Of a stretch of DNA of 25,650 bases, positions 4,758 to 24,618 are shown one piece after another (within the stretch, counting starts at the first letter, position 1; every line of letters starts with the position of its first letter). The DNA comes from Abditibacteriaceae bacterium (lineage in GTDB: Bacteria > Armatimonadota > Abditibacteriia > Abditibacteriales > Abditibacteriaceae), in contig JANPJS010000211.1 of the NCBI GenBank assembly GCA_031425655.1, positions 1-25,650 of the forward strand, written 5' to 3'. The notes below the pieces were generated by a model. The model did no database searches. It saw only the letters and a list, made by a program, of their open reading frames with translations, and was not told where the DNA came from. Both the position numbers and the translations under genes were made by a program.

Positions 4758-5195
4758 TTAAGTTTCCAAAATCATCGTCACCGGCCCATCATTTTCGACC
4801 GAAACGCGCATTGCTGCGGCAAACGTGCCGGTCTCAACCGGCACGTTTTGCTCGCGCAGAAGTTTAACAAACGCCTCGTAGAGCGCGTTTGCTTCGCCCG
4901 GCGGCGCGGCCTGCATGAAATTAGGCCGCGTGCCTTTCGATGAATCGCCGCAGAGCGTAAAGTTCGAGATTACAAGCGCGCCGCCGCCAATATCCAAAAC
5001 CGAGAGGTTGAATTTCCCGTTTTCGTCGTTAAAAATGCGTAATCCCGCGATTTTGCGCGCCAATTTGGCGGCTTTCGCGTCGTCGTCGCCGCGCGCAACG
5101 CCTAAAAAGATGACAAAGCCGGCGCCGATGCGGCCCACGACCTCGCCGTCTACTTCAACTTGCGCGCTTCGACATCGCTGCACCACGGCTTTCAT
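4758..5195 (-). CDS. dtd: D-aminoacyl-tRNA deacylase
   Basis: MKAVVQR start, LRIF, SNFTL, NDGPVT motifs; follows rel as is usual; ATG 5195 preferred to the longer repeat-derived ORF. Confidence 0.95.
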   Translation of the reverse strand: MKAVVQRCRSAQVEVDGEVVGRIGAGFVIFLGVARGDDDAKAAKLARKIAGLRIFNDENGKFNLSVLDIGGGALVISNFTLCGDSSKGTRPNFMQAAPPGEANALYEAFVKLLREQNVPVETGTFAAAMRVSVENDGPVTMILET

Positions 5196-5196
5196 A

Positions 5197-5258
5197 AGTG
5201 ACGAGTGACAAGTGACGAATGACGAGTATTCTGCACTCGTCATTCGTCACTCGTCACT
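5197..5258. repeat. Heptamer (ARTGACR)n hairpin filling the rel-dtd spacer
   Basis: AGTGACG AGTGACA AGTGACG AATGACG AGT at 5197-5227 and inverted copy at 5235-5258. Confidence 0.85.
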
Positions 5259-7754: not shown

Positions 7755-8835
7755 TCAAATCACTTCGAGATAATCTCTGTCCGGCAGCGCGGGAAACGGC
7801 GCGGTCGGCAAAGTTTGATACCAGAACGCGACGCTGGAAATATCGTCCTGCTGCGGCAAATAGCGCCCGCCGCTGCGCCATCCGAGCGCTTGAATCGTGA
7901 CGCGCAAATCGTCCTGAAAGCGAATTGGGTCCATGATGTGCCAGCGATAAAGCCCAAAGCGCGTTTGCGATTGATAAACGCCGTCGGGCCGAATCACCTG
8001 CGGCAAACCGGCGTAAGGCGTCGTGAATTCCTGATATTGCCTGGTCGCCTGATTTTCAAAGTTGTAACTGCCACAGAAATAATCTTCGGTTCCCGTTCCG
8101 CAAATGGTCGGGAATTCGCCGTCGCCGTCCAAGAAAAACTTGATTTCGCCTTCGCCCCACCAACCCGTATTGTTCACCTGCCACGCCATGTAAGTGCCGA
8201 CGAAAGTGCCCTGCCCGCGCACGCCGTCCAGAATCGTATAAACCTCTTTATAAGGTAGAGGGTTGACACGCCGAAACTGCGCGTGAAAATAAGCGGCATC
8301 GTCGGGCACGTCGGTCAGCGTGTAGTTGATCTGATAATACAGCGTCATCGCCTCGTCGGCGCGGTTTTCCACGGTCACGCGACAGCGCTCGCGAAACGGC
8401 ATTTCCCAGTAGCAATTGAAAGCGCTGCCTGGATTGACACAAACCGCAAGCGAGGAAACCTGCGCGTATTTGTTCCAACCGCAGGCGAAAAAATCACCGA
8501 TGGGACACTCGACAGACGGCTGCTCTTGATCGTCCCAATAAAAGCGCAAAATCGCGCTGCGCCACGGGCCGGAGGGCGTCATCCAGATTTGCTGAAGCGC
8601 GCCCGGCCCGTCAATAGCGGCGATTTCGCGCACTTCGCCGGGCTGAATGCGAATAGACGGCGAGATTTTCCAACCGCGTCCCAAATCGCGGGCGCAAGCG
8701 GCCCCCGGTGCCTTCACTGGCCATGCCGCCCTGCCCTTTGGCGCCATTGAAATTCTCCGGCGAAATCGAGCGCGTCTGCGCCTTCGATAAGCGCGACAAA
8801 TTTCCCAGATGCAAACCTAAACCGTTGAATGACAT
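7755..8835 (-). pseudogene. Glycoside hydrolase family 172 (DUF2961) gene with a one-base frameshift
   Basis: RBS GGAGG plus ATG 8835 gives MSFNGLGLHLGNLSRLS..TRSISPEN..EGTG; continuation AACARDLG..WWGEGE..GTGTEDYF..DDISSVAFWYQ is in another frame; shift at the G5 run 8702-8706; span 1081 nt = 3n+1. Could be a sequencing error. Confidence 0.8.
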
Positions 8836-9055
8836 TCCGCCTCCTGAATTTGGCCAGACGGCCCCAGACAAGTCAAATACTACAAAATGAAGCGAAAAAG
8901 CAACAGGCTGCACCAACGTCTTGATCTGAGACAGGCCCAAAAAAATCGAGGATTTTCACGAGAAGCCTATTCGAGAAACGATTCTCGAATGCAACGGCGA
9001 TTTAGCGAGAAGCCGACCCTCGGCAATCTCAAACAGAAAGAACTGCGCGCAAGCA

Positions 9056-9168
9056 CCCCAACGACCAAGCTCAGCCACCACCGGAAGCCAAAGCGAGGAA
9101 TAAAGGAGCGAAGCGCAGGGCGGGGCACCCTCTGGGTCGAGGCGGTCGAGTGCAGCGCCTTGTTCTGC
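9056..9168 (-). repeat. attC site (distal, divergent, 113 bp)
   Basis: Minus strand GCAGAAC-AAGGCGCTGCACTCGACCGCC...GGTGGTGGCTGAGCTTGGTC-GTTGGGG. Confidence 0.85.
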
Positions 9169-9183
9169 CGGTATTGGTCGCTT

Positions 9184-9447
9184 TCACGCAGCGGCCAGTT
9201 GCTCACGGATTAGTTGGGTAGCTAAATCGCTCGTTGTTACGCCTTGCTGACGTGCTTTATCACGCAACGCTTGAGCCACACTCATATCAATCTCGACCTC
9301 GTAATACCGATTGCGACGTTCGGCATTCACTTCAACGGTCTGAAATGCATCAGGATAATCCATCGTATCGTGTGCATCCCAAAACTCGCCAGCTTCTTCC
9401 AAACTGTTGAAAGTGTCAGGGAGGGGGTCAATGTGCTTTTCGTTCAT
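9184..9447 (-). CDS. Antitoxin, CopG/BrnA-like (ribbon-helix-helix C terminus)
   Basis: 87 aa; F.SLEEAGEFWDAHD..DY motif and C-terminal ALRDKARQQGVTTSDL; AGGAG RBS; downstream of BrnT-like gene. Confidence 0.85.
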   Translation of the reverse strand: MNEKHIDPLPDTFNSLEEAGEFWDAHDTMDYPDAFQTVEVNAERRNRYYEVEIDMSVAQALRDKARQQGVTTSDLATQLIREQLAAA

Positions 9448-9721
9448 TGTAATATCTCCTTTCAGCTTAGGTCATGTCTCGTGCTGAAATGGGCAAGGCC
9501 GCAGACCCGTGTTTGCGGATGAAGAAAACAATCAAGTATCTACCGCCATCAATTTGGCCGTAAGCCGCGTAAACGTCTTCGCCTTCAACTTGGCCGTGCT
9601 CGACACGCCGGAAGTGCGATCTACTAAACAGAACTTCTTCAACTTCCTCAACCGAGACGCCATGCTTGACCGCAAGTTTCTCCACGAATTTTTCCTTCCA
9701 GATAACATCGTAGACTTCCAA
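9428..9721 (-). pseudogene. BrnT-family (DUF497-like) toxin with premature TAA at 9467-9469
   Basis: AAGGAG plus TTG 9721; KHGVSVEEVEEV, G....GRYLIVFF, PISARDMT then TAA then AERRYYNERKAH-TGA(9428) in the same frame. Confidence 0.8.
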
Positions 9722-9800
9722 AACTGTCTCCTTGCGGTTCTGATCATAGCAAGAAGTATACAATTTAAACGTAATAATTACAGCAACGCCGCGCGCTGCG

Positions 9801-9894
9801 CCCTAACGACCAAGCTCACCCGCCGCCGAAAGCGCAGCTACCGAGGAACGAGGGAGCGAAGCTGTAGGCGGTCGGGTGCAGCGCCTTGTTATCC
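9801..9894 (-). repeat. attC site (94 bp)
   Basis: GGATAAC-AAGGCGCTGCACCCGACCGCC...GGCGGCGGGTGAGCTTGGTC-GTTAGGG. Confidence 0.92.
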
Positions 9895-9900
9895 CGCTTG

Positions 9901-10473
9901 TTAATGCGTAATAATGTCTTCCTGTGGGAATTTACAATAACCTACCAATCGCCAAACCTGCATGGAGAACAGTAGAGCCTTGTATCGCTGAATGTGTATA
10001 TCGTGCAATAAATTGCGAAAATGTGCCAACTCTTTTTCTGAAAGCTGGCTGGCGTCCAACTCTAACCATTCAACTTCATCGTAGAATATGGTGCCGTGAG
10101 CAGGAAAAATGAAATAAGTATCGCAAACACCCTTCGCAAGATTCGGCTGCCAAGATGTTACGTTAGAACTTTCAATAAATTTGATACGAAATTGTATTGG
10201 AAGATGACGCAGTAATGAAATTCCCTTCTTCCATTGCTCGTCACTCGTTACTCGCAGCGCCTCACTTTTGTGAAGAATGACCGTCACTTCCTGCAAATAA
10301 CGGTGTTCCATCGCTGCTTCAAATTCAGCTTGTTCGCGCTCTGTTCGTTGCGGAATAGGAAGTATTTCATTGATCTTTTTCAAAAACTCACGGGATTCTT
10401 CCTGTTTCTGCCTCGATGAACTTGGATATATCATCCAAATTAGTTTGACCAAGAAGTGAGAGAGAGAAATCAT
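9901..10473 (-). CDS. Cassette-encoded hypothetical protein
   Basis: 190 aa ORF filling the cassette; stop 6 nt before attC. Confidence 0.75.
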   Translation of the reverse strand: MISLSHFLVKLIWMIYPSSSRQKQEESREFLKKINEILPIPQRTEREQAEFEAAMEHRYLQEVTVILHKSEALRVTSDEQWKKGISLLRHLPIQFRIKFIESSNVTSWQPNLAKGVCDTYFIFPAHGTIFYDEVEWLELDASQLSEKELAHFRNLLHDIHIQRYKALLFSMQVWRLVGYCKFPQEDIITH

Positions 10474-10522
10474 ACAAATAGTATGATAAAAGTTTGGCGG
10501 GCAATCAAGTTTCGCGCGAGCG

Positions 10523-10613
10523 GGCTAACGACCAAGCTCACCCGCCGCCGGAAGCGTAGCGAGGAGGAACGACGAGCGGACTGTAGGCGGTCGGGTGCAG
10601 CGCCTTGTTGTGC
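10523..10613 (-). repeat. attC site (91 bp)
   Basis: GCACAAC...GTTAGCC with the conserved arms. Confidence 0.92.
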
Positions 10614-10667
10614 CATTGTTAATGCCTACAAATTGTGTTTTGCAGGCAATTGACGAGAGCGAAGTTC

Positions 10668-10967
10668 TTATTTTGAGACAAACAAAAACATAACTTGATT
10701 CAGGTTGATCCACCCCTCCTCGAAGCCGCCCCAATCCTTGTCGGGAAATGTCACCTGCACCCATGCACCACGAACACCGCCATCTTTATGGCGCTCTATT
10801 TTGAAACTGGGCTTATCGGTGGTGTCTCCAGGGTGTGCAACCCCTGTGATGTAATAGACGGTATATTCCACGCCTTTTTCTAGTGGTGGAAGCAAAGATT
10901 CTGCCGACTCACTGCCACCTGGCGCGTTTACAACTTCGACCTTGATAGGTTCTGCAATTTGAATCAT
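10668..10967 (-). CDS. Cassette-encoded hypothetical protein (beta-rich C terminus)
   Basis: 99 aa; AAGGAG RBS; second gene of a two-gene cassette. Confidence 0.75.
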   Translation of the reverse strand: MIQIAEPIKVEVVNAPGGSESAESLLPPLEKGVEYTVYYITGVAHPGDTTDKPSFKIERHKDGGVRGAWVQVTFPDKDWGGFEEGWINLNQVMFLFVSK

Positions 10968-10987
10968 GGTGTGATTCTCCTTTTAGA

Positions 10988-11024
10988 ATCGAGCAGAGGT
11001 CTATGCGAGCAGCCTCTGCTCGAT
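10988..11024. other. Perfect 12-bp stem-loop between the two genes of the cassette
   Basis: ATCGAGCAGAGG (10988-10999) / CCTCTGCTCGAT (11013-11024). Confidence 0.75.
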
Positions 11025-11038
11025 CATCCGTTCTGTGT

Positions 11039-11158
11039 TCAACAGTCCCTGTTACTACAGGCATGAGCAACATCTGATGTTCCTGTTGAACTGGCAACAA
11101 AGTGAACGCCTGCGGCGACGGCCAACGCCATAACCGCGATGACAAACAGCTTTTTCAT
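11039..11158 (-). CDS. 39-aa secreted peptide precursor MKKLFVIAVMALAVAAGVHFVASSTGTSDVAHACSNRDC
   Basis: Read by hand (below ORF-track cutoff); AAGGAGG RBS, promoter upstream, signal-peptide pattern. Confidence 0.8.
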   Translation of the reverse strand: MKKLFVIAVMALAVAAGVHFVASSTGTSDVAHACSNRDC

Positions 11159-11186
11159 ATTCCCCTCCTTGTTCTAAATTGTTTCG

Positions 11187-11215
11187 ATTATAGCACTCAA
11201 AAAAGCTGCGCGCAA
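11187..11215 (-). promoter_or_regulatory. Cassette-internal sigma70 promoter TTGCGC-N17-TATAAT with extended -10 TG
   Basis: -35 at 11215-11210, -10 at 11192-11187 preceded by TGC. Confidence 0.75.
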
Positions 11216-11217
11216 TG

Positions 11218-11321
11218 GCACAACGACCAAGCTCACCCGCCGCCGGAAGCGCAGAGACCGAAGCGAGGAACGAGCGAAGGGAACGAAGCTGTAGGCGGTC
11301 GGGTGCAGCGCCTTGTTGGGC
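11218..11321 (-). repeat. attC site (104 bp)
   Basis: GCCCAAC...GTTGTGC. Confidence 0.93.
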
Positions 11322-11357
11322 TGCTGTTGGTGACGAGCGTTGATAACTGCATGTGGA

Positions 11358-11594
11358 TTATTCACCCTCTTCTTGCTTCCACTTTTTGTAATTGTATGTT
11401 GCTTGGGCTACGCCGACAACAACCGTGAAGAAGAATATCCACAAATAGGATATGAAGCTGTGAGCTGTAGGTATTTGATGAAGTAAAAGAAGAAGAGGCG
11501 AGAACGCCAAGACCCATAATGTGCGAATAAACTTACGTCTGTAAGATAACGCGTAATAGGCAACACAGAAGCCTTTGTCAACTCCATTTTTCAT
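11358..11594 (-). CDS. Cassette-encoded small membrane protein (2 TM, LSYRRKFIRTLW motif)
   Basis: 78 aa from ATG 11594 with AAGGAGAAGGGG upstream; two hydrophobic segments. Confidence 0.8.
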   Translation of the reverse strand: MKNGVDKGFCVAYYALSYRRKFIRTLWVLAFSPLLLLLHQIPTAHSFISYLWIFFFTVVVGVAQATYNYKKWKQEEGE

Positions 11595-11642
11595 AATTCC
11601 CCTTCTCCTTGAGTATCGCACACCACAACGCCGCGCGCAGCG

Positions 11643-11746
11643 GCCCAACGACTAAGCTCACCCGCCGCCGGAAGCGCAGAGACCGAAGCGAGGCACGAGC
11701 GCAGGGAACGAAGCTGTAGGCGGTCGGGTGCAGCGCCTTGTTAGGC
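11643..11746 (-). repeat. attC site (104 bp)
   Basis: GCCTAAC...GTTGGGC; nearly identical to 11218-11321. Confidence 0.93.
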
Positions 11747-11768
11747 CATTGTTGAGGAGTGATGTTCG

Positions 11769-12572
11769 TCACTTCCCGGACGGGGCATTAAATGCGCCCT
11801 TCCAAGTGTTGGTGTAGTCACCACTACAATCGGAAATATACTGCTTTAGATCGTCGTTGCCGAAGGTGTTGTGGAGAAGGATAAGAACCTCAATTGCCAG
11901 AAAATGAGATGTGGCAAGAGATTCTTTAACTTTTTCTTCGCTGAATCCCTGTGCGTTACCGAAAACGAGCCTTTGGCCGTTCTCCGCTTTGGATTGCGAG
12001 AAGACGTGTATCATCGAAGGGTGCGCGATCTCAAGAGGTCTATAATAGGCCGAAACCAGGTATTTGCCCATATTGACATCTTTGGCTCTTTCTACAAAGT
12101 TGGTATCTGTCCAATCGTGCTTAGGCGCCGCAATTTTGCCGTCAGCGCCCCTATATGGATTTAGCGCATCTTCTATCGCTTGCTTTTGCGTTGCGTCTAA
12201 AGTTTTGCCGTTCAAGTTTTCTATTTGCCCCTGAACCTTTTTGATAAACAGAAGCATATATCTCTTAAAGTCTGCAGCCTTTTCGGGATGAGCCTGAATA
12301 TAACTTGCATTTACTAATCCCTCAAACATTGCCCTTACAAGTGGCATGGAACCGTCGCCGCGACCTTGCGAACAGAGTATGACAATATCGTGAAATCTAT
12401 CCACGCAAAGTTTGGCCAATACAAGCACATAATGGTCTGATTCGCTCGTGACTTTTGGCACGTCAAAAGCTTTAGAATATGCCTCCATTAACTTTGGTAG
12501 GCATTCTGAAAAACTGGCATATTGATTGTTGAACTGCTCAAGATTCTGCGACAGATAATCTAAATCATTCAT
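11769..12572 (-). CDS. Cassette-encoded DUF5677-like helical protein
   Basis: 267 aa from ATG 12572; LVRAMFEGLVNASYI and YYRPLEIAHPS resemble the R..FE...Y and Y......H motifs of DUF5677 (recalled, not searched). Confidence 0.65.
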   Translation of the reverse strand: MNDLDYLSQNLEQFNNQYASFSECLPKLMEAYSKAFDVPKVTSESDHYVLVLAKLCVDRFHDIVILCSQGRGDGSMPLVRAMFEGLVNASYIQAHPEKAADFKRYMLLFIKKVQGQIENLNGKTLDATQKQAIEDALNPYRGADGKIAAPKHDWTDTNFVERAKDVNMGKYLVSAYYRPLEIAHPSMIHVFSQSKAENGQRLVFGNAQGFSEEKVKESLATSHFLAIEVLILLHNTFGNDDLKQYISDCSGDYTNTWKGAFNAPSGK

Positions 12573-12643
12573 AATTGTCCACTCTTGGTTCTTCAATAAT
12601 ATAGCAGATTCTTGCTGCGGCAACCATGTAGCTGGGCGCGATG

Positions 12644-12729
12644 GCCTAACGACCAAGCTCACCCGCCGCCGAAAGCGAAGTGAGGAACGAACGAAGCTAT
12701 AGGCGGTCGGGTGCAGCGCCTTGTTCTGC
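12644..12729 (-). repeat. attC site (86 bp)
   Basis: GCAGAAC...GTTAGGC. Confidence 0.92.
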
Positions 12730-12751
12730 CGGTGTTGGTGGGCCTTGCTCG

Positions 12752-13783
12752 TCACCATTTCGTCTTGGCCTTCTCAACACGGAACCATTGGACGTGTCCG
12801 CAGTTATCGCAGACAAGCATACGCCAGTCAGAACTAGTGAGGGCTTTGAATCCAACGAAATAGTAAAAGTCTTCATGGCTCGTTTTATTGATGTTATCTC
12901 CTGCCTTAACAGTCAATTGATAACTCCCTTGCCCACAATATAGACAAGGCTGGGGGACTTTAGAGCCAACCATATTATATTGACCCTTTAATAACTCGGC
13001 CATAGCTTTGAACGCGGTTAGAACCTCTTTCGCGTCCTGAAAACGCTTTTCGGGTTCCCGAACTACCATCCGGTCAAGGAGAAGATTTACACGCTCAAAT
13101 CTTCCATTCTTGTGTAGCCCTACCAAGTCAAAATGAGGCTGTCTAAAATCCTCGCGGCTCAAAACCTTTCCCCCACTCAACAAATAATAGAGCAGCTTCC
13201 CTAACGAATAAACATCAGCAGAAGGGAATATGTCATGAACTCCGCCATGCTCCAGTTCAGGAGCCATAAAAATGCGAGGCCCTACAATCTCACTTGTCTG
13301 GGTGAGACGGGCATCTTCCGATGAATACGCGATGCCAAAATCAGCTACGACTGCTGGCCCGCGCGCTTCTTTCAAAAGAATGTTTTGTGGCTTTATATCC
13401 CGATGAACGAAACCTTTAAAATGTGCTGCGGCAAGACCTACGCAAACATCTTCAAAGATTTGCAGAGCAAAGTTTAAATCTGAACTCCACACTTCTTTTT
13501 GTTTATCCAAGTTACCGCCAACGCATAGTTCGTAAACAACAAATGGAGGATTTGCATTTACATCATGCTCGACGGGACGGATAACGTTAGGATGTGCGAG
13601 CGTTTCGGAAATTTCAATTTCACGTCGAAAACGTTCGATAGCCTGCTCATCGCTTCGATTCGTAGTTTTGAGAGCATAATGTTGCGGATTGCCGTTGGCA
13701 CAAACGACTTCATATGCAGTTCCTTGACCGCCACCACCTAGTCGTCCTACTTCTTCCCAACGTCCGTTTCCAAATTTCATCAT
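12752..13783 (-). CDS. Cassette-encoded Hanks-type Ser/Thr kinase with C-terminal zinc ribbon
   Basis: GGGGQG loop, ALK, HRDIKPQN, DFG, APE, DVYSLG; CLYC...CDNC at C terminus; no TM segment. Confidence 0.93.
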   Translation of the reverse strand: MMKFGNGRWEEVGRLGGGGQGTAYEVVCANGNPQHYALKTTNRSDEQAIERFRREIEISETLAHPNVIRPVEHDVNANPPFVVYELCVGGNLDKQKEVWSSDLNFALQIFEDVCVGLAAAHFKGFVHRDIKPQNILLKEARGPAVVADFGIAYSSEDARLTQTSEIVGPRIFMAPELEHGGVHDIFPSADVYSLGKLLYYLLSGGKVLSREDFRQPHFDLVGLHKNGRFERVNLLLDRMVVREPEKRFQDAKEVLTAFKAMAELLKGQYNMVGSKVPQPCLYCGQGSYQLTVKAGDNINKTSHEDFYYFVGFKALTSSDWRMLVCDNCGHVQWFRVEKAKTKW

Positions 13784-13855
13784 AGAGTTACCAGTGTTGC
13801 CGCGTTCTGTAATAGATTACAAAAATCAGGCTTTGTATTCAAGCTGCGCGCACCG

Positions 13856-13951
13856 GCAGAACGATAAAGCTCACCCGCACCCCGGCGGGGAAGCTAATTA
13901 CTCTGATTTTAGCCGGGCGCCGGGGTGTCGGGGTGCAGCGCCTTGTTGGGC
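13856..13951 (-). repeat. attC site (96 bp, different internal stem)
   Basis: GCCCAAC-AAGGCGCTGCACCCC...GGGTGAGCTTTATC-GTTCTGC. Confidence 0.9.
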
Positions 13952-13958
13952 AGCATTG

Positions 13959-14054
13959 TTAGCGGTGTGTAACGTCGAACACCCATCTGCCCAGAACAAC
14001 GCCGATTCCGGCAAACAAAATAGCTTTTGTGAGTTCAGTCAGAATGTATTCCAT
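13959..14054 (-). CDS. 31-aa single-TM microprotein MEYILTELTKAILFAGIGVVLGRWVFDVTHR
   Basis: Read by hand; AGGAG RBS; fills the 132-bp space between two attC sites. Confidence 0.75.
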   Translation of the reverse strand: MEYILTELTKAILFAGIGVVLGRWVFDVTHR

Positions 14055-14083
14055 TTGTCTCCTGCCACATTATTCGCAATGCG

Positions 14084-14175
14084 GCCCAACGACCAAGCTC
14101 ACCCGCCCGCGTAAGCGTAGCGAGGAGGCACGACGAGCGAAGCTGTAGCGGGTCGGGTGCAGCGTTTTGTTGTGT
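14084..14175 (-). repeat. attC site (92 bp)
   Basis: ACACAAC...GTTGGGC. Confidence 0.92.
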
Positions 14176-14815
14176 TGCAATGAGACAACATTTCGCGCCC
14201 GATGTATTCCGTAAACGCTGGCGGAACAGCTTGACTAAGCTCGTCTGGACTCATCCAATTTATCCCCATTGCCGCCGCGCCCGCCGCGCCTGATTTGCCG
14301 ACGTGCGAACACCAGCCCGACTCACTCGGTTTAGCGCGGTCATTCAGCATACGCCCTGAGCCGATAACGTGTTCATGTTTTTGGTGTTGCGGAACCATAA
14401 CCAAAAAATTGGCTTCAAAAAGCCGGTGTCGGTAAACCCGTAACCCAAACTGAGCACCACACAAACGAAATGCGCCGCTCATATCCTGCCACGCATCCTC
14501 TACGTTTTCAATCACGAACGGTAGGCCGGTTGCCTGCAATGCCGCCCGCGTCGGGCCGATGAGTAGAGGATAAATTTTGCCTTTGAGCCACGGTAGGTGG
14601 CGCATACGGCTATAACCCTGGCAAGGCGGCGAAGCGTGAATAGCATCAAATTCATGCCCGTGTTTCGCAACGTATTCAAGCGCATCGCCCTGAACAAACT
14701 GGAACGGATAGCGCGGCTGCTGAACACAATCAACGCCGACAATTTCATCGAAGCCGGCGCGATGGTAGCCCATCGCGCTACCTCCGGCACCAGAAAATAA
14801 GTCTAAGAGTTTCAT
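14099..14815 (-). CDS. Cassette-encoded DNA (cytosine-5) methyltransferase, short phage-like type
   Basis: Motif I LDLFSGAGG, IV ASPPCQ, VI IENV, VIII RHRLF, X SQAVPP; ORF reads into the attC. Confidence 0.9.
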   Translation of the reverse strand: MKLLDLFSGAGGSAMGYHRAGFDEIVGVDCVQQPRYPFQFVQGDALEYVAKHGHEFDAIHASPPCQGYSRMRHLPWLKGKIYPLLIGPTRAALQATGLPFVIENVEDAWQDMSGAFRLCGAQFGLRVYRHRLFEANFLVMVPQHQKHEHVIGSGRMLNDRAKPSESGWCSHVGKSGAAGAAAMGINWMSPDELSQAVPPAFTEYIGREMLSHCNTTKRCTRPATASLVVPPRYAYAGG

Positions 14816-14831
14816 TTCAGTAAGGTTTGCA

Positions 14832-14933
14832 ACACAACGACTAAACTCAACCGCCCAAAACAGCGCAATTTAGTGACAGTTTACAGCCAAATTAGCGAGG
14901 CTGTTTTGGGTCGGTTGCAGTGCCTTGTTGGGG
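14832..14933 (-). repeat. attC site (102 bp, divergent with compensatory changes)
   Basis: CCCCAAC-AAGGCACTGCAACCGACCCAAAACAGC...GCTGTTTTGGGCGGTTGAGTTTAGTC-GTTGTGT. Confidence 0.9.
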
Positions 14934-15134
14934 CGCTTGTTTAGAACCTGTCGGCACGATTTCTTCAATTCCGCGCCGCTTTGCCAGTGCATTCAAATAA
15001 AATTCCACTTCGCCAAACCGAGGTTCGGGAATGCCAAGCGCCTCGTGGTTGTTCGACAGGAACGTAACCGCTTCGGCTTTAGCAAACATGATTTTGTTGT
15101 GGTGTTCAATGATTTTTTGCAAAAGTTCTTCCAT
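14892..15134 (-). CDS. Cassette-encoded hypothetical protein
   Basis: 80 aa from ATG 15134 with AGGAGG RBS; stop lies inside the attC loop. Confidence 0.7.
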   Translation of the reverse strand: MEELLQKIIEHHNKIMFAKAEAVTFLSNNHEALGIPEPRFGEVEFYLNALAKRRGIEEIVPTGSKQAPQQGTATDPKQPR

Positions 15135-15169
15135 GAAACCTCCTGCCGCCGCAACGTAACGCGCGAGCG

Positions 15170-15269
15170 GCCCAACGACTAAGCTCACCCGCCGCCGGAA
15201 GCCGGAGCGGAGCCGAGGAACGAGGCGAAGCGCAGGCTGTAGGCGGTCGGGTGCAGCGCCTTGTTCGGC
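15170..15269 (-). repeat. attC site (100 bp, first cassette)
   Basis: GCCGAAC...GTTGGGC. Confidence 0.92.
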
Positions 15270-15284
15270 TGGCGTTAGTGAGTT

Positions 15285-15899
15285 CTATAACAGTTTCTCT
15301 AACTTTCGTGTGATCCAAGCATTGAAGCCAACCAGTTCTGATGCCAGATTAATAACGTGTGCGCTCAAAACGCAAAATCTGTCTTGAGCAAAGGCAAAAA
15401 CCAAAGGACTGCTTTTCCAGTTAACGAAATCTTTTCGTTTGTCTTTGTCCAAGTGCATAATGTCGCCATAAATAAATCTTTCGAGAAAATCCAAAACGCT
15501 TGGTTCCTGACCATTAATTTTTAGCGGCTCAATTCGCATACTGGTGTAAGCGTTTGCTGGGCCACTGAGAATTTTCTCGACATCTTCTCGATGACTTTCC
15601 AAAGTTTTTAAGGAAGTCTCATCAATGGGTAACTGGGCGTAAACAAGGTGCATTTGCCGAAAAGAGATTCGGTCGTTCCGTGATATGAGAAGGCGGATGC
15701 TCGGTGCCCAAGCGCGAATTGATTCGTCGCTTGGGCCGCGACGTTTGACCATCCCTTGTTTTGTGTCGAACTCAAAAGAGATGTCAATTCCGCTATTATC
15801 AAAAACAGACTTCGCAAAGCTCGATTCGCTCAGTTCGGTGAACTTCTCATCGAACAACGCCAGTAGTTCGATTGTTTCCTCAATTTGCTGCTTATCCAT
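15285..15899 (-). CDS. Hypothetical protein of first cassette
   Basis: 204 aa ORF filling the cassette; no family recognised with confidence. Confidence 0.8.
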   Translation of the reverse strand: MDKQQIEETIELLALFDEKFTELSESSFAKSVFDNSGIDISFEFDTKQGMVKRRGPSDESIRAWAPSIRLLISRNDRISFRQMHLVYAQLPIDETSLKTLESHREDVEKILSGPANAYTSMRIEPLKINGQEPSVLDFLERFIYGDIMHLDKDKRKDFVNWKSSPLVFAFAQDRFCVLSAHVINLASELVGFNAWITRKLEKLL

Positions 15900-15952
15900 G
15901 CTTTATATTCTGGTATGAAAGTGTGGCAGATGCAACCAAGCTGCGCGCGCCA

Positions 15953-16000
15953 GCCGAACTCTGAATTATGCCGCAAATCCACCAGTATTTGCGGCATAAT
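15953..16000 (-). other. attI-like recombination site with overlapping 14-bp inverted repeat
   Basis: Minus strand GCATAAT-TCAGA-GTTCGGC (L box, 5 bp, R box); ATTATGCCGCAAAT (15965-15978) / ATTTGCGGCATAAT (15987-16000). Confidence 0.65.
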
Positions 16001-16093
16001 CATGCTTTAATCCGAAGAAACCGCAACGCGAGAATATTTAACGTCTTCTCTGTGTTACAGCGCGCGATGCATTCAGGCGACACCGTATGAGCT

Positions 16094-16122
16094 ATCTTAC
16101 CCAGCAAACTCATTTAGCACAA
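16094..16122 (-). promoter_or_regulatory. Candidate Pc-like promoter TTGTGC-N17-TAAGAT facing the array
   Basis: -35 at 16122-16117, -10 at 16099-16094. Confidence 0.4.
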
Positions 16123-16182
16123 AGGCCATAGCTTTCGTATGAAGCTTGCATTCGCGCCGTAGCATTAGGTTGCAAAAGCCCA

Positions 16183-18465
16183 TTAATTGTCGGGCACGCG
16201 CACGATAAACGTGTCGCCATCTTCAAAAACAACTGGCAGTTTCGCCCGCAGCTTTGCTAACGCCGCCGCTTTGTATTGGCGCCGCTCCCATTCGCCGACG
16301 AATATGTAATGCACGTTCAAAGCACGCAACGCATCCAGCGCCTCGACATCGCTGGGCCAGGCGTAAATGAGGCGCACCATATCCCAGCGTTCTTGCACGC
16401 CGCTCATGTCGTTGCCCCACATCCAGACGTGTTGCGGCCATCCCAGCGGCGCAGGCTGGCCGCTAAGCGCCGAAACTCGGCCAACCATCGTGAAATCGCC
16501 GCCCATTTTGCCTTTGTCGTCTTCTCCGACAGCTTCGAGAACGACCTCGCCGGGCACCGCGTTGCTTTGCAGCCAATCGAGCGCTTTTCGGTCGGAAGTC
16601 GGCAAAAACCGCGCTCCGTCTAAGGACAGCCGGAACTGACCGGCTTCATCGCGCGGCGCATCGCGCACCACGCGCGTCCAGATTATGCACCAACCGCATA
16701 GCGCGGGCACGATGCACAGCACCGCGCCCGCCACGCCCAACACGCGGCGCGGCAATTTCGGCAGCGTGACCCAAGCACGCAGAGCCAAACTCGATGCTGC
16801 GAGGCCCAACAGCAGCCAGCCTTGCAAGCCAAATTTAAAAACTGTGTCCTGATGCCGCAAGCCTCCTCCGAAAAAGCCTTGCATATAGAAAAACTGCGGC
16901 ACCGCCATGCCCAAAAGCCCGCACAGGCCGAGCAGAAGGCCTAAATTTAGTCTCGATTCGTTTTCGCGCCGCGCTGTCCACAACTCGGCGCCGGTGCAAG
17001 CTATCGTGCCGACGGTGACAACTAAGGCACTGGCCGGCCACCATCGCACCAAAAGCAGCATGAAAATCAGCACGAGCGCCGCATCGCGTCGCTCTGCGCT
17101 CGTTTTCGCCAACGCCAGCAGCCATAGCATCAGCCAACTGCCCCAGAACACCAAAAACGGCACCGACGCAGGCGGCCAAAGCTCAAAAACCACGCCGCTC
17201 ACCTGCGCCTTGAAACGCCATAAATACGGCAGCGCCACCACGATGACCAGAAGCATTGCAACGGCGAGTTCGGCCCACTTTTCCGATTTGCGGCCCCGCG
17301 CCGTCAGAATCGCCGAGCCGATTACAAGCAGCGCATAAAGCGGCACGTCCCACGTATTGGTCATCACAAAAACGCCGAGCAAAATGCCAAGCAACGCCAG
17401 CACAGCGCGGCGGTGCCGCACGCTTTTGTGTGCGAAAAGCGCGAAGCACAGCGAAAACAAAAGCGCGGCTAAGGCCAGCGCGTAAAAATGCGCGTGCGCA
17501 TCGCCGATAGCCATTGTAAAAATGGGATATTCGCTGATGGCGAACCACGGATAATCGGTGTTGGTCGTCCACGGCGCGCGGGGCAGATTCGCCCACGCCG
17601 CGGCATATTGGGCCGGAGCGATGATCGGCCTTGCTGGTGCGTCAAGGTTCGGCGTGCCGTCGGGCCTGCGTTCGGGCAACCCGCTGAGTTGCTCGGTCGT
17701 ATCGGGAAAAACGCGCGAGGTGCTCCACCAATCGAGGCGCGCGAAATAATTATCCGAATTCGGCAGAGGATTAATCCACTGTCGCACCGGCTCGAAATGA
17801 CCAAAAAGCGCGACGAGCAACACCACAATCACGCCGCGTTTTAGCGAACCCGAAAGCGCCGCGCCGATAGCCCACAGCGTGGAAACGAACAAAGCGCAAA
17901 AAAGCGGCTGCACCAGGTTATAAGCGAAGGGCACCGACAATCCGAACGAGCGCGCCGGCAGCGCGCCCATCAGCGGGCCAAAGTGATAATAGCTGGTCAA
18001 AGGCGTGCCGCTCAGCCACGGATTATTGAGCGGCAGCCCGTCGGCGCGCATCAAACCGCCGAGTAGCGCCGCGTCCATCAATTTTTCCAAGTCGTTGAGT
18101 TCGGGATGGCGCAAGCGCACCCATAAAAAGAAGCCGAAAGCCGCGCCGAAAACCAAATCGGAGGCCAGCAAAGCGCGGCGATTTTCACCGCGCCACACCC
18201 GAAAACCGTCGTGCCGCGCGAAGCGACGGCAAAGCAGCGGCAGTCCGAAAATCCACAGAGGCGTCAAAGCCAACGGGACGACGCGCAGCATCGCGCCCCA
18301 ATAAACGAAAAGCGCGACGAGCGTTAGAAACAGCACGCGCCCGGCGGCCAATCCGCCGTCCGGCAAATTCGGAAAAACGCGCCGCGCCAGAGGCAGCACG
18401 GCGCGTCCCAAAAACCAAAAATATCCGAACCAGACCGCGATGAGGAGAAAGGAAGCGAGATTCAC
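16183..18465 (-). CDS. DUF2298 (Chlor_Arch_YYY-like) polytopic membrane protein, putative GT-C type glycosyltransferase
   Basis: EKLMD, NPWLSG..SYYHFG, ISEYP..IGDAHAH, NTWD, DTVFKF, GWPQH motifs; many TM helices. Confidence 0.85.
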   Translation of the reverse strand: MNLASFLLIAVWFGYFWFLGRAVLPLARRVFPNLPDGGLAAGRVLFLTLVALFVYWGAMLRVVPLALTPLWIFGLPLLCRRFARHDGFRVWRGENRRALLASDLVFGAAFGFFLWVRLRHPELNDLEKLMDAALLGGLMRADGLPLNNPWLSGTPLTSYYHFGPLMGALPARSFGLSVPFAYNLVQPLFCALFVSTLWAIGAALSGSLKRGVIVVLLVALFGHFEPVRQWINPLPNSDNYFARLDWWSTSRVFPDTTEQLSGLPERRPDGTPNLDAPARPIIAPAQYAAAWANLPRAPWTTNTDYPWFAISEYPIFTMAIGDAHAHFYALALAALLFSLCFALFAHKSVRHRRAVLALLGILLGVFVMTNTWDVPLYALLVIGSAILTARGRKSEKWAELAVAMLLVIVVALPYLWRFKAQVSGVVFELWPPASVPFLVFWGSWLMLWLLALAKTSAERRDAALVLIFMLLLVRWWPASALVVTVGTIACTGAELWTARRENESRLNLGLLLGLCGLLGMAVPQFFYMQGFFGGGLRHQDTVFKFGLQGWLLLGLAASSLALRAWVTLPKLPRRVLGVAGAVLCIVPALCGWCIIWTRVVRDAPRDEAGQFRLSLDGARFLPTSDRKALDWLQSNAVPGEVVLEAVGEDDKGKMGGDFTMVGRVSALSGQPAPLGWPQHVWMWGNDMSGVQERWDMVRLIYAWPSDVEALDALRALNVHYIFVGEWERRQYKAAALAKLRAKLPVVFEDGDTFIVRVPDN

Positions 18466-20982: not shown

Positions 20983-21828
20983 TTACGAACGATGGTTACT
21001 GAAGCGTTCGCGCATTTGCAACGCTTGTTCGCGGCGCTGGGACGAAGCGGAGTTACGAACTGTGTCCACGGCAATATAGGCGGCGATTTCGCCATACATA
21101 TTCATACGCACGCGGAAACCTCGCCAGATACCGATTTTTTCCTCTTTGACCGGATGTGTCACGTTATGCAGCCACGCCACAGCGACTTTCAGCTTCCAAA
21201 CGTGTTTCACATAACGAGTAATCGCCGTTTCAACGCCGAAACGCGAATTCGTCAGGCCCGGCACTGCGAGAAAAACATCGCGGCGAATGGCGCGTTGGCC
21301 AGTCAGCATCGCTATGTGGCGATGACAAAAGCCCAGCCACCAACCGAAAATTCCGCCGCGCACCGCGCCAAATAATCCCAACGTCATATCGGCGCGCTGG
21401 TTTGGCTCATCGCTTAGCATCGGCGTCAAAAGGTCGTCTACGTGCGAAGATTTGAGACCGATCAGGTCGGCATCCAAGAAAACCAGCACTTCGGCTTCGG
21501 TGCGAAGCGCGCCATAAGTCAGGGCGCCACCTTTGCCAATGTTGTGTTTCAGTTCAAAAATCCGCAGTTCGCGGCAGCCTTCGCCGCGCTCGGTGTTTTC
21601 CGCGAACGCGGCTTTCAATTTGGCGGCGCACTGGCGCACTTCTGCCGCGGTGCTGTCGGAGCATCCGTCGGTTACAACGATAATTTCATCCACCAAACGC
21701 GCGGCGGCAATGACTTCGAGAACAGCGGTGATGCGTCCGGCTTCGTTGTAGGCCGGCACGACGGCGGCGGTGCGGGGTTGGCTGTCGCGCGGGGCGTGCG
21801 ACGGGCTGGCATTGGAAAGTGGGTTCAA
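20983..21828 (-). CDS. Glycosyltransferase family 2
   Basis: VVPAYNE, DGCSDST, N.GKGGA, FLDADL, TGQRA, FGVE. Confidence 0.92.
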   Translation of the reverse strand: MNPLSNASPSHAPRDSQPRTAAVVPAYNEAGRITAVLEVIAAARLVDEIIVVTDGCSDSTAAEVRQCAAKLKAAFAENTERGEGCRELRIFELKHNIGKGGALTYGALRTEAEVLVFLDADLIGLKSSHVDDLLTPMLSDEPNQRADMTLGLFGAVRGGIFGWWLGFCHRHIAMLTGQRAIRRDVFLAVPGLTNSRFGVETAITRYVKHVWKLKVAVAWLHNVTHPVKEEKIGIWRGFRVRMNMYGEIAAYIAVDTVRNSASSQRREQALQMRERFSNHRS

Positions 21829-22154
21829 GAGCCGAGCACCTCGTTGGCGTAAGTTATCAATTCGCGGCGATTAGTGTAACCGACGATTTGCGACACGACT
21901 TCACCGTTTTTGAAAAACGTCAAATTCGGAATTTTACTGACGCCATAACGCAAACTTAGCGCTTCGTATTGATCTACGTCGCACTTGACGACTTTCAAAC
22001 GTCCATCAAATTCGACGGCTAAGGCATCTACGAGCGGCGCCACCATGCGGCACGGGCCACACCAAATCGCATAAAAATCAACTAAAACAGGATGGGACGA
22101 CTGCAAAACTTCGCTTTCGAAGTTGGCATCGCCAACGGCAACAACATTCGACAT
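21825..22154 (-). CDS. trxA: Thioredoxin (WCGPC)
   Basis: 109 aa from ATG 22154; VLVDFYAIWCGPC, cis-Pro loop IPNL. Confidence 0.9.
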   Translation of the reverse strand: MSNVVAVGDANFESEVLQSSHPVLVDFYAIWCGPCRMVAPLVDALAVEFDGRLKVVKCDVDQYEALSLRYGVSKIPNLTFFKNGEVVSQIVGYTNRRELITYANEVLGS

Positions 22155-22165
22155 AGGCGTGATTG

Positions 22166-22236
22166 AAAAATAAAACAAAACGGCGGGACGCGCTCGGAAA
22201 TTCGCGCCGGGCGCAAATTTCCGGGCACGACCCGCC
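22166..22236 (-). terminator. Long imperfect hairpin plus U-tract between the two thioredoxins
   Basis: GGCGGGTCGTGCCCGGAAATTTGCGCC / GGCGCGAATTTCCGAGCGCGTCCCGCC followed by TTTTGTTTTATTTTT. Confidence 0.65.
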
Positions 22237-22244
22237 TGTTGAGG

Positions 22245-22574
22245 TTAGCCGTTGATGATTTCGTCAACCACCGACGCTAATTGCTGCTCGTTTTTGTAAC
22301 CGACGACCTGATTGACAATTTGCCCATCCTTGAAAAAAATCAAGTTCGGGATCGAAACCACGCCGTATTGGGTGGCGAGATCAGGATTTTCGTCCACATT
22401 GCACTTCACGACCTTAAGCTGGCCGGAATACTTGCCGGCCACGCTATCGAGCACCGGCGACAGCATTTTGCAAGGCTGGCACCATTCGGCCCAAAAGTCC
22501 ACCACAACTGGGTTGCTGGACTGCACAACTTCCGCGTCGAAATTTCCGGCTCCGACCGAAGCAACATTTGACAT
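22245..22574 (-). CDS. trxA: Thioredoxin (WCQPC)
   Basis: 109 aa from ATG 22574 with GGAGGA RBS; VVVDFWAEWCQPC. Confidence 0.93.
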   Translation of the reverse strand: MSNVASVGAGNFDAEVVQSSNPVVVDFWAEWCQPCKMLSPVLDSVAGKYSGQLKVVKCNVDENPDLATQYGVVSIPNLIFFKDGQIVNQVVGYKNEQQLASVVDEIING

Positions 22575-22693
22575 GATATTTCCTCCTGGAATTTCCACAG
22601 CGCCTTGAACAGCATCCCGCGATGCCGCCGAAATCGCCGATTCACGACTTGCAAACCTCAGTTCCACTCGACGCCTTGCGAACGATTTTCGTC

Positions 22694-23854
22694 CTATCCA
22701 GCACGGTTACGCGACGTTTTGTGCACTTCCCGCTGCGCGGAAATGAGATTTAAAAACAACACATCTAACGCCAGATTAGTGCTGGCGTTGCGTAAGATAT
22801 AGTGACGGGTTCGCCGCACTTGGTCAAGCCCATCGGCCCACGCCAGAGTGTCCGGCCCGGTTCCGCCACTCGCCAGACTCGCCGACCAACGCGCTCTGTA
22901 AACCGTCGCCAGCTCGTCCAAAAAGCGCGCCGCCGCCGAGCGTAATTCTTTGCCTTCGAGCTTTTTCGCAGCGCCCGGAGCCTTGTTTTTGAGAACCGCC
23001 TGATCTTCGCTCCACCATTGCCGCGCAAGGCGCAAAGCCGCTTCGGTGAGGCCCAGCGCGCCGACGGATTGGCTGCGCGCGATGCGTTCGACAACCGCTT
23101 CGGTTTCCACAAAACGCGAATGATGCTCGGTTGGCGTGCCATCGTCGTCCTCATCTTGCGCCAATAAGCGGCGCGCTTCGCGCCACGCTTTGCCTGGACG
23201 CCCCGCCGCCACGCGCGTCGCTTCGCTGAGCAACTCCGGCGAGGCTTCGGCAAATTGCGCCTGCAGCCACGTCACGATTTCGGCATCGGGCGCCAAACCC
23301 AGCGGCAAATGCCAGCAGCGCGAACGCACGGTCGGGCGAAGGTGGCTGAGGTTTTCCGATAAGAGCAGCAAAGTCAGGCCGCGAGATGGCTCTTCCAGTG
23401 TTTTTAACAGCGCATTCTGAGCAGCTTCCGTCAGTCTCTCAGCCTGCGCGATGATAATAACCCGCCGTGCCCCCGACATGGGACGGCGCATTGATTCATC
23501 AATTAAATTCCGCGCCATATTGATGGGAATCACGCTGCTTTCCAAAACATCGGGGGCTGTTTCCCACTTGCGTTCATCGTCAACGGCAGCCACCACCGGA
23601 CGATAAACGCGATAATCAGGAAAAGTTTCAATTTCAACCTGATGACACACGCGGCAGTGACCACACGGCGCCGGCAGGCCGTCGGAATCCAACGACACAG
23701 CGGGGCACAGCAGCAATTGCGCGTAACGTCGCGCCAGCGTTTCCTTGCCGGTTTGCGGCGGCCCGCTGATGAGCAGCGTTTGCGGCACGCAGTCTTTGGC
23801 AAACGCCCGCGCTAAAGCCGCCCATCGCTTCTGATGGCCCACGATGAGTGACAA
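22694..23854 (-). CDS. holB: DNA polymerase III subunit delta prime
   Basis: GPPQTGK, Zn cysteines CGHCRVC, AAQNALLKTLEEP, TVRSRC; downstream of tmk. Confidence 0.92.
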   Translation of the reverse strand: MSLIVGHQKRWAALARAFAKDCVPQTLLISGPPQTGKETLARRYAQLLLCPAVSLDSDGLPAPCGHCRVCHQVEIETFPDYRVYRPVVAAVDDERKWETAPDVLESSVIPINMARNLIDESMRRPMSGARRVIIIAQAERLTEAAQNALLKTLEEPSRGLTLLLLSENLSHLRPTVRSRCWHLPLGLAPDAEIVTWLQAQFAEASPELLSEATRVAAGRPGKAWREARRLLAQDEDDDGTPTEHHSRFVETEAVVERIARSQSVGALGLTEAALRLARQWWSEDQAVLKNKAPGAAKKLEGKELRSAAARFLDELATVYRARWSASLASGGTGPDTLAWADGLDQVRRTRHYILRNASTNLALDVLFLNLISAQREVHKTSRNRAG

Positions 23855-23870
23855 ATGACGAGTGACGAAT
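23847..23870. repeat. Single arm of (ARTGACR)n heptamer repeat at the tmk-holB junction
   Basis: AGTGACA AATGACG AGTGACG AAT; same unit as 5197-5258. Confidence 0.7.
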
Positions 23871-24490
23871 CAGGCATCGGCGGGGAGTAAATGGCGTTCG
23901 CGTAGAATCTCGATGATATTGCGATGAATTATGTCGGGTGAAGGCGCGGCGTCTATGACAACGACTCGTTTTGGCTCGTCGCGCGCGATAGCTAAAAAAC
24001 CTGCGCGCACTTTCGATTGAAACTCCAAGCCGCGCGCCTCAATGCGGTCGTTTCGCTCTGCCGCGCGGCGCGTCTGGGCAATGGCAGGTTCAACATCGAA
24101 AATCAGCGTCAAATTCGGCTCGGCACTCGCTGTGGCAAAAGCGTTCATTTGCTTGATGAACGAATCGGGCAAACCCAGTCCGGCGCCTTGATAAGCAAGG
24201 CTCGAATCCGCAAAACGGTCGCAAAGCACGTCCGCGCGACGTTGCAACGCCGGACGAATGACTTCGGCAACGTGCTGTGCGCGAGCCGCTCCGAAAAGCA
24301 AAAGCTCGGCGCGAGCATCCAACGCCTGCGCGGAATGCAGCAAATAATGGCGAATCGCTTCGGCGAGCGCGGTGCCGCCCGGTTCGCGCGTAGTCACGAC
24401 TTCACGCTGCGCCGCGCGCAGAAACTCGGCTAAGAGATTCAACTGCGTGGTCTTGCCACAGCCGTCAATGCCTTCAAAAGTGAGAAACAT
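23870..24490 (-). CDS. tmk: Thymidylate kinase
   Basis: FEGIDGCGKTT, TREPGGT, LCDRF.DSSLAYQG. Confidence 0.97.
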   Translation of the reverse strand: MFLTFEGIDGCGKTTQLNLLAEFLRAAQREVVTTREPGGTALAEAIRHYLLHSAQALDARAELLLFGAARAQHVAEVIRPALQRRADVLCDRFADSSLAYQGAGLGLPDSFIKQMNAFATASAEPNLTLIFDVEPAIAQTRRAAERNDRIEARGLEFQSKVRAGFLAIARDEPKRVVVIDAAPSPDIIHRNIIEILRERHLLPADA

Positions 24491-24618
24491 TAAAGTGAAA
24501 AGTGATGAGTGAAAAGTGATGAGTGAAAAGTGATGAGTGAAAAGTGAAAAGTAACGGCTTCCTGCGCCCTACTTTTCACTTTTCACTCATCACTTTTCAC
24601 TTTAATGTTTCTCACTTT
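24477..24618. repeat. Heptamer (AGTGAAA/AGTGATG)n hairpin with 43-bp perfect outer stem
   Basis: 24477-24519 is the exact reverse complement of 24576-24618. Confidence 0.9.

Follow-up and report, generated by a model that had tools for sequence, protein, structure and literature searches.

The 25,650-nt contig JANPJS010000211.1 (C211), analysed over its whole length and referred to here as the window, belongs to a 5.98-Mb, 327-contig genome (G000) of the family Abditibacteriaceae that is 97% complete with 0.45% contamination. It carries an array of ten genuine attC cassettes, separately inserted, and by homology the head of this array is a true attI site, a paralogue of the attI that adjoins the intact integron integrase gene (intI) on another contig of the same genome, C103. 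Comparison of these sequences favors the view that the locus is a sedentary chromosomal integron that lost intI and kept attI, and that the remaining integrase (IntI) probably serves the site in trans.

An attC site is built from R'' (AAC) and R' (GTT) boxes, paired L'' and L' boxes with an extrahelical base, and unpaired spacers of 5 and 6 nt. The first-pass annotation, made from the letters of the window alone, had reported ten homologous attC sites on an all-minus-strand array, and both statements were borne out. Ten homologous repeats lie between 9060 and 15265, measuring 78–105 bp from AAC to GTT (86–113 bp with four flanking bases per side), and a profile search of the window returned exactly ten matches (E 5e-13 to 1e-20). 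Each site reads on the minus strand as AAC, a 5-nt spacer, a 7-nt L'', a variable stem, a 6-nt L', a 6-nt spacer and GTT, with AAC, GTT and the 5- and 6-nt spacers present in 10/10 sites, and every cargo open reading frame (ORF) that could be assigned lies on the minus strand. L'' pairs with L' at 6/6 positions in nine sites and at 5/6 in the most distal, attC 10. The extrahelical bases of the bottom strand are C in 10/10 sites and T in 9/10, as the annotation had observed in support of that orientation; in canonical attC sites the first extrahelical base is more commonly G, whereas here it is C. Folding gives the attC shape in nine sites, the exception being the distal site at 9060, where it is not the minimum-energy structure, and hairpin stability is modest (z below −2 in just 3/10 sites). 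An Rfam scan gave no match at the gathering threshold; a covariance model (R1) was built from the window's own sites, making its matches to those sites circular. IntI would be expected to recombine such sites as bottom strands.

The cassettes are 228–1212 bp long, with a GC content of 0.41–0.54 against 0.567 for the genome. Within each cassette, the eight bases after the opening GTT were compared with the eight bases before its own closing AAC, and the two are complementary at 70/80 positions, against 38/80 when the array neighbour is used instead; none of 100,000 permutations reached 70. Nine of the ten cassettes pair with their own tail at 7–8 of the 8 positions, cassette 10 (3/8) being the exception. 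Because pairing with the own tail exceeds pairing with the neighbour in this way, the array was assembled from separate circular cassettes. The cassettes of this family also share a second AAC about 8 nt before R'' in their tails and a GCGCG motif 5–9 nt after GTT in their heads.

At the head of the array, a G|TT crossover between 15959 and 15958 is accompanied by a 5-bp spacer (15960–15964), an L box (15965–15977), an inverted box (15989–16000) and a third box (16021–16025). The annotation's description of an attI-like head is upheld by homology to the attI beside the intact intI on C103, from which the 19-base core differs at one position, and the window site is homologous also to intI-linked attI sites of relatives (here, other Abditibacteriaceae genomes, labelled G001–G022, with G001–G003 of the same genus). 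The upstream boxes stand at offsets −44 and −69, identical in five loci (C103 and four that lack intI). A −10-like hexamer inside the L box, 6 nt from the crossover, is a candidate for the cassette promoter (Pc), and the inverted box is a candidate −10 element of the integrase promoter (PintI); a sigma-70 consensus scan listed no promoter at attI and found 10 sites over the region against 7.3 expected.

The integrase on C103 is the only match over the TIGR02249 cut-off in the genome (428 bits against 265) and is encoded by an open 321-aa frame without stops, with its attI (L box, 5-bp spacer, G|TT) divergent from intI and followed by cassettes carrying the window's attC type; six weaker tyrosine-recombinase matches occur elsewhere in the genome. 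Behind the window attI lies a 5' stub of a paralogous intI. Residues 10–32 align with C103 IntI at 69.6% identity (tblastn), the nucleotide similarity is 70% over 133 nt (blastn, E 4.9e-7; nhmmer, E 7.2e-8), and the alignment scores 121.5, whereas none of 200 shuffles exceeds 75.5. With a nucleotide profile of intI from the whole family the stub goes undetected; only the C103 gene used as query finds it. Its translation is identical to C103 IntI at 16/23 residues, against 9/23 for the next best of 73 rows, placing it in the same integron lineage. These 73 rows (12 from relatives and 61 of 80 fetched IntIs) also make up a quick version of an IntI tree, in which the family IntIs group together with a support of 93, below the starred level. 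The stub has lost its start codon, has suffered small deletions, contains an in-frame stop before residue 10, and is changed at the conserved positions Y31 (99% conserved), E28 (94%) and R26 (79%). Over nine conserved codons (about 21 non-synonymous sites) it shows four amino-acid changes, or three without H22R, a change that 12% of intact IntIs also have, and three of the residues are unseen in 73 intact IntIs; relative to the C103 paralogue there are 12 synonymous differences in about 15 sites. The remainder of intI is gone, and the DUF2298 gene ends 66 nt past the stub.

Because a 5' stub lies behind attI, where intI belongs, the locus is most simply read as a former complete integron, a paralogue of the C103 integron, that lost intI. 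As it stands, it lacks the intact intI that a complete integron has beside its attI, and with no fewer than two attC sites and no intact intI close by it is an attC-site cluster that has no integron integrase (CALIN). The annotation had described a window without tyrosine recombinase or insertion sequence (IS) and had proposed a remote integrase. The first statement holds for intact recombinases and transposases in the 26 ORFs scanned for families (picked out of 169 listed), but the decayed intI stub had been missed; the second is matched by the intact intI on C103 with the same attC family, from which we infer its use by the window, but the locus was not integrase-free by origin. lexA and recA are present in the genome; no box shared by the regions upstream of lexA, recA and intI was seen by eye, and no motif search was run.

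The window is not a lone array. The genome has many attI-headed cassette loci: a profile of the ten window sites gives 63 matches on 31 contigs of the genome (77 on 37 in a second round), the covariance model gives 59, and many loci open with an attI-type L box, five bases, GTT and a cassette head. All 183,435 GTT sites were ranked with a profile made from attI sites that adjoin intI in two other genomes (nine foreign sites were intended, but seven have other spacer lengths and failed to match), and the top 6, and 12 of the 17 best, head cassettes. Fourteen of 17 hand-picked intI-less heads fall within the top 50 and three outside; the hand-picking used a similar motif, leaving only the top-rank figure free of circularity. 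Four intI-less loci (C211, C100, C193, and C326) keep three boxes at exact spacing, and across the five loci compared the boxes are 78–88% identical and the gaps 27–45%. Other satellites (C24, C54, C321, C63, and C244) have the L box only. A search for intI remnants beside nine other heads in the genome found none scoring above shuffles. At C317:12137 (minus strand), L box and spacer equal those of heads in the relative G011 (L082) and represent an attI type unlike that of C103, a hint that platforms in the genome stem from several sources.

An assembly or binning artefact, in which repeats misjoined the array or the contigs of several organisms were pooled, could in principle produce such a picture, given 327 contigs of which several end in arrays. 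Sequencing runs were screened for the locus, and one was listed as containing it (X1), with no RNA run among those listed. The window was compared with contigs of this run, possibly the source sample, of low depth and with contigs that drop rare variants. X1 contigs are identical to the window over 8167–9831, 12700–15199 and 15240–17000, the last of which covers flank, stub, attI and cassette 1. The listed X1 pieces fail to bridge 5/10 attC junctions (attC 1, 5, 6, 7, and 9), a further point in favor of an artefact, and the attC 8 junction likewise has no flank-spanning piece; the internal order is thus partly checked, and X1 joints between attC ends, which have unknown middles, were left unused. 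Set against these gaps are the low contamination, the identity across the array head, more than 5 kb of contig upstream of 16/17 intI-less heads, and, in the relative G009, an intI-less attI copy on the same contig as intI. An artefact is therefore very improbable.

intI was found in 10/24 family genomes and attC model matches in 25/26 other family genomes, in keeping with the annotation's proposal of a resident attC family of the lineage, and intI-less copies of a host's own attI type recur among the relatives, as judged from their sequences. G005 holds two such copies (5-bp spacer) that share about 145 bp with its own attI and have a sharp left edge, G013 holds one (5-bp spacer), and the G009 copy lies 1.06 Mb from its intI. 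A 6-bp-spacer attI pattern gave 67 matches against 16 in a reversed control, some of them attC ends or chance; of 20 picked by look, 17 have attC alongside and two have an intI remnant. The G017 remnant resembles that of the window, being a 5' stub that spans 39 residues. In spacer sequence and spacer length the copies follow their host, and they often start at the first box, 1–35 nt downstream of the stop codon of a gene. In G011, which is a single contig, about nine places together account for 25 attC matches, and headed arrays are numerous; one attI-type head (L084:12538) stands in the middle of a run of attC sites, giving two headed arrays in tandem.

We propose that copying or re-acquisition brought integron platforms to many chromosomal positions, as a rule directly downstream of the stop codon of a gene, and that intI would then have been deleted, with the deletion tending to stop at the first attI box. 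The C103 IntI would still excise window cassettes (attC x attC) and insert them at the window attI (attC x attI), such that one integrase may run over a dozen or more docking and expression sites, and the first cassettes would be transcribed from the −10-like hexamer that the L box contains. Trans activity is argued on three grounds: the stub has decayed more than the attC sites, attC sites at different loci are nearly identical, and distal sites tend to be truncated. One uncompensated lesion occurs in the attC cores (180 bases over the ten sites), less damage than in the stub (Fisher p 0.004 or less); the cassettes are younger than the decay of the stub or have been kept by selection. Window attC sites are up to 97–99% identical to sites at other loci and 96.9% identical to sites in the C103 array. 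The distal attC is truncated or the weakest in five of six other contig-internal headed arrays (C16, C314, C186, C193, and C317; not C326). On this evidence, service of the window array by the C103 integrase in trans seems a somewhat better than even proposition.

Several observations weigh against continued service of the array. First, the attC lesion count is biased low, since the sites were found by their own core motifs, and the stub amounts to 23 codons compared with a paralogue, not with its true ancestor. Second, comparison at the DNA level reveals no further copy of any window cassette in the genome, the low-depth X1 contig that crosses attI shows no alternative first cassette, and no turnover is visible; a metagenome scan for same-species contigs gave one distant match only, and no same-species genome or contig was found for comparison of content. 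Third, attC scores in the window do not fall steadily with distance from attI, conservation of boxes over gaps is also expected if the copies had their own intI until recently, and the boxes may be kept for promoter function instead of recombination. Finally, G011 yielded no intact intI match despite its many arrays, and arrays can therefore outlast an integrase. An alternative is that the array was filled while its own intI was present and has been static since the gene was lost, with attI retained as a promoter or not yet decayed, and with the other satellites being relics of the same kind. The stub itself fits such a history, as do the lack of visible turnover, the G011 arrays, intI fragments beside arrays in G011, G008, G003, G017 and G022 and the many truncated satellite attC ends, and intI loss is named among CALIN origins by Cury et al. 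(2016; PMC4889954). The stub has decayed far beyond attC and attI, however, attC sites stay nearly identical across loci, and an intact IntI of the same lineage is present in the cell, which leaves a frozen relic unlikely, if still a serious contender.

How attI came to stand at so many places allows further alternatives. IntI may have recombined an attC with a secondary site upstream of attI, releasing a circle with attI, cassettes and in some cases part of intI, which reinserted at a GWT through its attC; the stub would then be a piece carried along, and a complete intI would never have stood at the window. C326 lends itself to this idea, because the last attC there meets native sequence precisely at G|TT, next to a stop codon, and its site is empty in G003, where the flanking genes abut with no attI between them; the frequent start of platforms 1–35 nt past a stop codon and the sharp left edge of the G005 copies agree with it as well. 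G002 holds an unrelated 6.9-kb insert without attC at the C326 site, and a cassette of C326 (24154–24589) has a 91% identical counterpart in G002 (C220:4956–5388) with no attC match nearby, possibly a domesticated copy. Against reinsertion of a circle, the similarity of the stub extends about 9 nt beyond the only GTT candidate junction, the distal end of the window is a cassette head and not native sequence, GWT lies near the upstream stop codon in 15/26 cases against a 40% background (p 0.05, post hoc), and a search for empty sites at seven satellites (C326, C24, C193, C16, C314, C317, and C244) was usable for C326 only. We consider this origin improbable for the window.

A second route would have cassettes enter a native promoter-like sequence that happens to resemble an L box. 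Insertion at secondary (attG) sites is documented in a published study (10.1101/2022.09.11.507474), an extended −10 motif resembling the L box has 18 matches upstream of host genes, and the five satellites named above keep the L box only; some of these minimal sites may have arisen in this way. The window, with three boxes at exact spacing and an intI stub, contradicts it for this locus, most heads follow gene ends and not gene starts, and the copies keep the host's spacer sequence and length, making a de novo site at the window highly improbable. For most loci we also rejected the related view of heads as native promoters at whose +1 position cassettes were trapped, as heads follow gene ends. 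An origin as an attG insertion or as a lone attC site without an integron integrase (SALIN) was likewise set aside at the window, which has attI and the stub on the left and a cassette head on the right; a native right-hand side was seen at C326 only.

Beyond loss of intI and service in trans at one locus, a wider speculation is that the family integron is a distributed system, in which IntI copies its own platform and one integrase loads a dozen or more satellite attI sites. In such a system the platform would travel either on a circle that bears attI or within an entire integron that later loses intI, and each satellite attI would be a separate first-position expression slot. We hold this only tentatively and regard it as doubtful.

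Table 1. Features of the window (positions in nt of the 25,650-nt contig; ~, approximate).
Feature	Position	Strand	Description
attI platform	15957..16026	-	Homologous to the intI-linked attI on C103
5' intI remnant	~16000..16116	+	Leader and codons to ~32
attC 1	15174..15265	-	Supported by profile, fold and core-box check
attC 2	14836..14929	-	Divergent; L boxes with compensatory changes
attC 3	14088..14171	-	Supported by profile and core-box check
attC 4	13860..13947	-	Divergent
attC 5	12648..12725	-	98.7% identity to an attC on C186
attC 6	11647..11742	-	96.9% identity to an attC in the C103 integron
attC 7	11222..11317	-	96.9% identity to a C103 attC
attC 8	10527..10609	-	97.6% identity to attCs on C314 and C243
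attC 9	9805..9890	-	Supported by profile and core-box check
attC 10	9060..9164	-	Most degraded; one unpaired L position, poor fold
Cassette 1 ORF	15285..15899	-	204 aa; no family in Pfam, NCBIfam, PADLOC or PHROGs
Cassette 2 ORF	14892..15134	-	80 aa; reads into its own attC; no family
Cassette 3 ORF	14099..14815	-	238 aa; phage-type C5 cytosine methyltransferase-like (PF00145, E 3e-8; phrog_363, E 3e-33)
Cassette 4 mini-ORF	13959..14054	-	31 aa; hydrophobic, after a ribosome-binding-like AGGAG; no Pfam match
Cassette 5 ORF	12752..13783	-	343 aa; Ser/Thr kinase (PF00069, E 3e-32)
Cassette 6 ORF	11769..12572	-	267 aa; DUF5677 protein (PF18928, E 7e-17)
Cassette 7 ORF	11358..11594	-	78 aa; hydrophobic; no family
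Cassette 8 ORFs	10668..11158	-	39 aa (11039-11158) and 99 aa (10668-10967); no families
Cassette 9 ORF	9901..10473	-	190 aa; no match to profile hidden Markov models
Cassette 10	9184..9763	-	BrnT toxin and CopG/BrnA-type antitoxin (PF04365, E 2e-10; PF12441, E 1e-9)
Distal end	8836..9059	-	Cassette-type head without ORF or attC, running into the DUF2961 leader
DUF2961 gene, distal flank	7755..8835	-	Frameshifted in a G run (five G) at 8702-8706
DUF2298 / Chlor_Arch_YYY membrane protein gene, proximal flank	16183..18465	-	Ends 226 nt before the crossover

Most of the cargo is uncharacterised, as first described. A family was assigned for 4/10 cassettes (3, 5, 6, and 10; Table 1), and searches of Pfam, NCBIfam, PADLOC, PHROGs and Atlas found none for cassettes 1, 2, 4, 7 and 8. 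Cassette 9 gave one weak lead, to DUF6678, at an Atlas score of 0.84, below the tool's 0.9 line. The cassette 1 protein has six other homologues at 57–93%, with a best Atlas score of 0.77, and the mini-ORF of cassette 4 stands alone in its cassette. The best PADLOC match of the cassette 5 kinase is PD-T4-6 (E 4e-46), which, given the generic kinase domain, is a lead only. The 39-aa ORF of cassette 8 is signal-peptide-like, with two C-terminal cysteines and a good ribosome-binding-like site, and is followed by a long inverted repeat. The pair in cassette 10 is a type II toxin-antitoxin module at the distal end of the array, which, by analogy with other arrays stabilised by toxin-antitoxin cassettes, would stabilise this one.

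Cargo of the satellite arrays includes restriction-modification pairs, toxin-antitoxin genes, and HNH and GGDEF proteins, according to a scan that took in 67 ORF references out of 135 listed and included two from C103. One satellite cassette (L066:5281–7727) carries a BsobI-like restriction-modification system with its methylase in reverse orientation, and another (L072:4019–5798) an EcoRI-like system with its methylase. On C54 (L061:4939–5961), an IS110-family transposase gene sits at an attC that lacks its R'' end, and the IS junction sequence also precedes attC matches at the starts of C143 and C283, which suggests an attC-targeting IS in three places. At C193:52634 (minus strand), a hybrid site without a hairpin consists of a cassette tail joined to a 5-bp spacer of attI type and GTT; we take it to resemble the attI1* hybrids of Tn1331.

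The flanking genes are less core than the annotation had claimed: there are genes on both sides, but the distal one is frameshifted and the flanks are not syntenic in relatives. The DUF2961 gene starts at about 8835; orthologues in G001–G003 read the part with the frameshift in one frame, and an X1 contig carries the same letters there. The segment between it and attC 10 is probably a truncated eleventh cassette, to judge from its head. In three same-genus genomes the two flanks lie on different contigs. Among the relatives examined, neither attC nor intI occurs next to DUF2298, relA or DUF2961, and with flanks that lack synteny no empty site can be defined for the window locus. The position of the array is thus not conserved among these relatives. 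Elsewhere in the window, short 7- and 14-base tandem repeats lie between convergent or adjacent genes (5190–5240, 23847–23874, and 24494–24549), and two tandem thioredoxin genes (21825–22667, minus strand) lie between holB and a glycosyltransferase gene, in tandem in G003 too.

The origin and liveliness of CALINs are an open question, 95% of them being without a recognised intI pseudogene in Cury et al. (2016; PMC4889954). The window locus keeps a record of its origin in a full attI and a 5' stub that C-terminal searches miss, and in its genome a dozen or more sites around one integrase grade from three-box platforms to bare L boxes. By itself the locus fits neatly into a known kind; seen as one among these attI-headed sites of a genome with a single integrase, a pattern repeated across the family, it is a variant that merits direct testing. 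If these sites are live, the integron would express many more cassettes than one Pc allows at the cost of one integrase, and surveys of CALINs should then include a search for attI copies specific to a lineage. Were the distributed system real, other phyla too would contain many CALINs that are live satellite platforms with attI sites and short 5' stubs so far overlooked. The analysis also defines attI and attC for Abditibacteriaceae.

CALINs, intI loss, and one attI-headed CALIN have already been published, whereas the many-site, family-wide pattern of attI-headed arrays was not found in searches of an open-access library, nor was an integron study of this family (subscription papers and supplements lay outside the search). 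Origin of CALINs by intI loss and their use in trans have been proposed (PMC4889954; PMC9668308; 10.1101/2025.06.18.660453). The CALINs of Cury et al. (2016; PMC4889954) share with the window at least two attC sites, no intact intI nearby and cargo of unknown function, and for half of them an IntI is encoded elsewhere, as it is here on C103. With ten sites the window is large, given that 83% of those CALINs have fewer than six sites and 6.6% more than ten, and, as a further difference, it has no adjoining IS. attI was not searchable for most integrons there but is identified here, and the C-terminal pseudogene search of that study (15/279 positive) would miss the window's 5' remnant. In Xanthomonas, intI was similarly lost by deletion or frameshift, extra CALINs occur, and mobilisation in trans was proposed (10.1101/2025.06.18.660453); intI is kept there at one locus (ilvD), whereas here platform positions are not shared between genomes of one genus, and the additional arrays have an attI of their own, unlike the Xanthomonas CALINs. 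SALINs inserted at attG sites give scattered cassettes as seen here, and C326 likewise ends at a native G|TT junction, but the attG consensus is GWT only, whereas the heads described here have an L box of 11–13 bp and often upstream attI-derived boxes (10.1101/2022.09.11.507474). In class 2 and Vibrio cholerae integrons, a Pc inside the attI region would survive loss of intI, as would the candidate promoter here; the predicted −10 element of the window overlaps the L box, 6 nt from the crossover, unlike those promoters (PMC8876359). A parallel in arrangement is the Shewanella prophage M16-3, in which one attI type heads both a complete integron and an integrase-less array, as in this genome; that case concerns one extra site in a cryptic prophage, whereas the sites described here number a dozen or more, are chromosomal, and recur across the family (PMC9892861).

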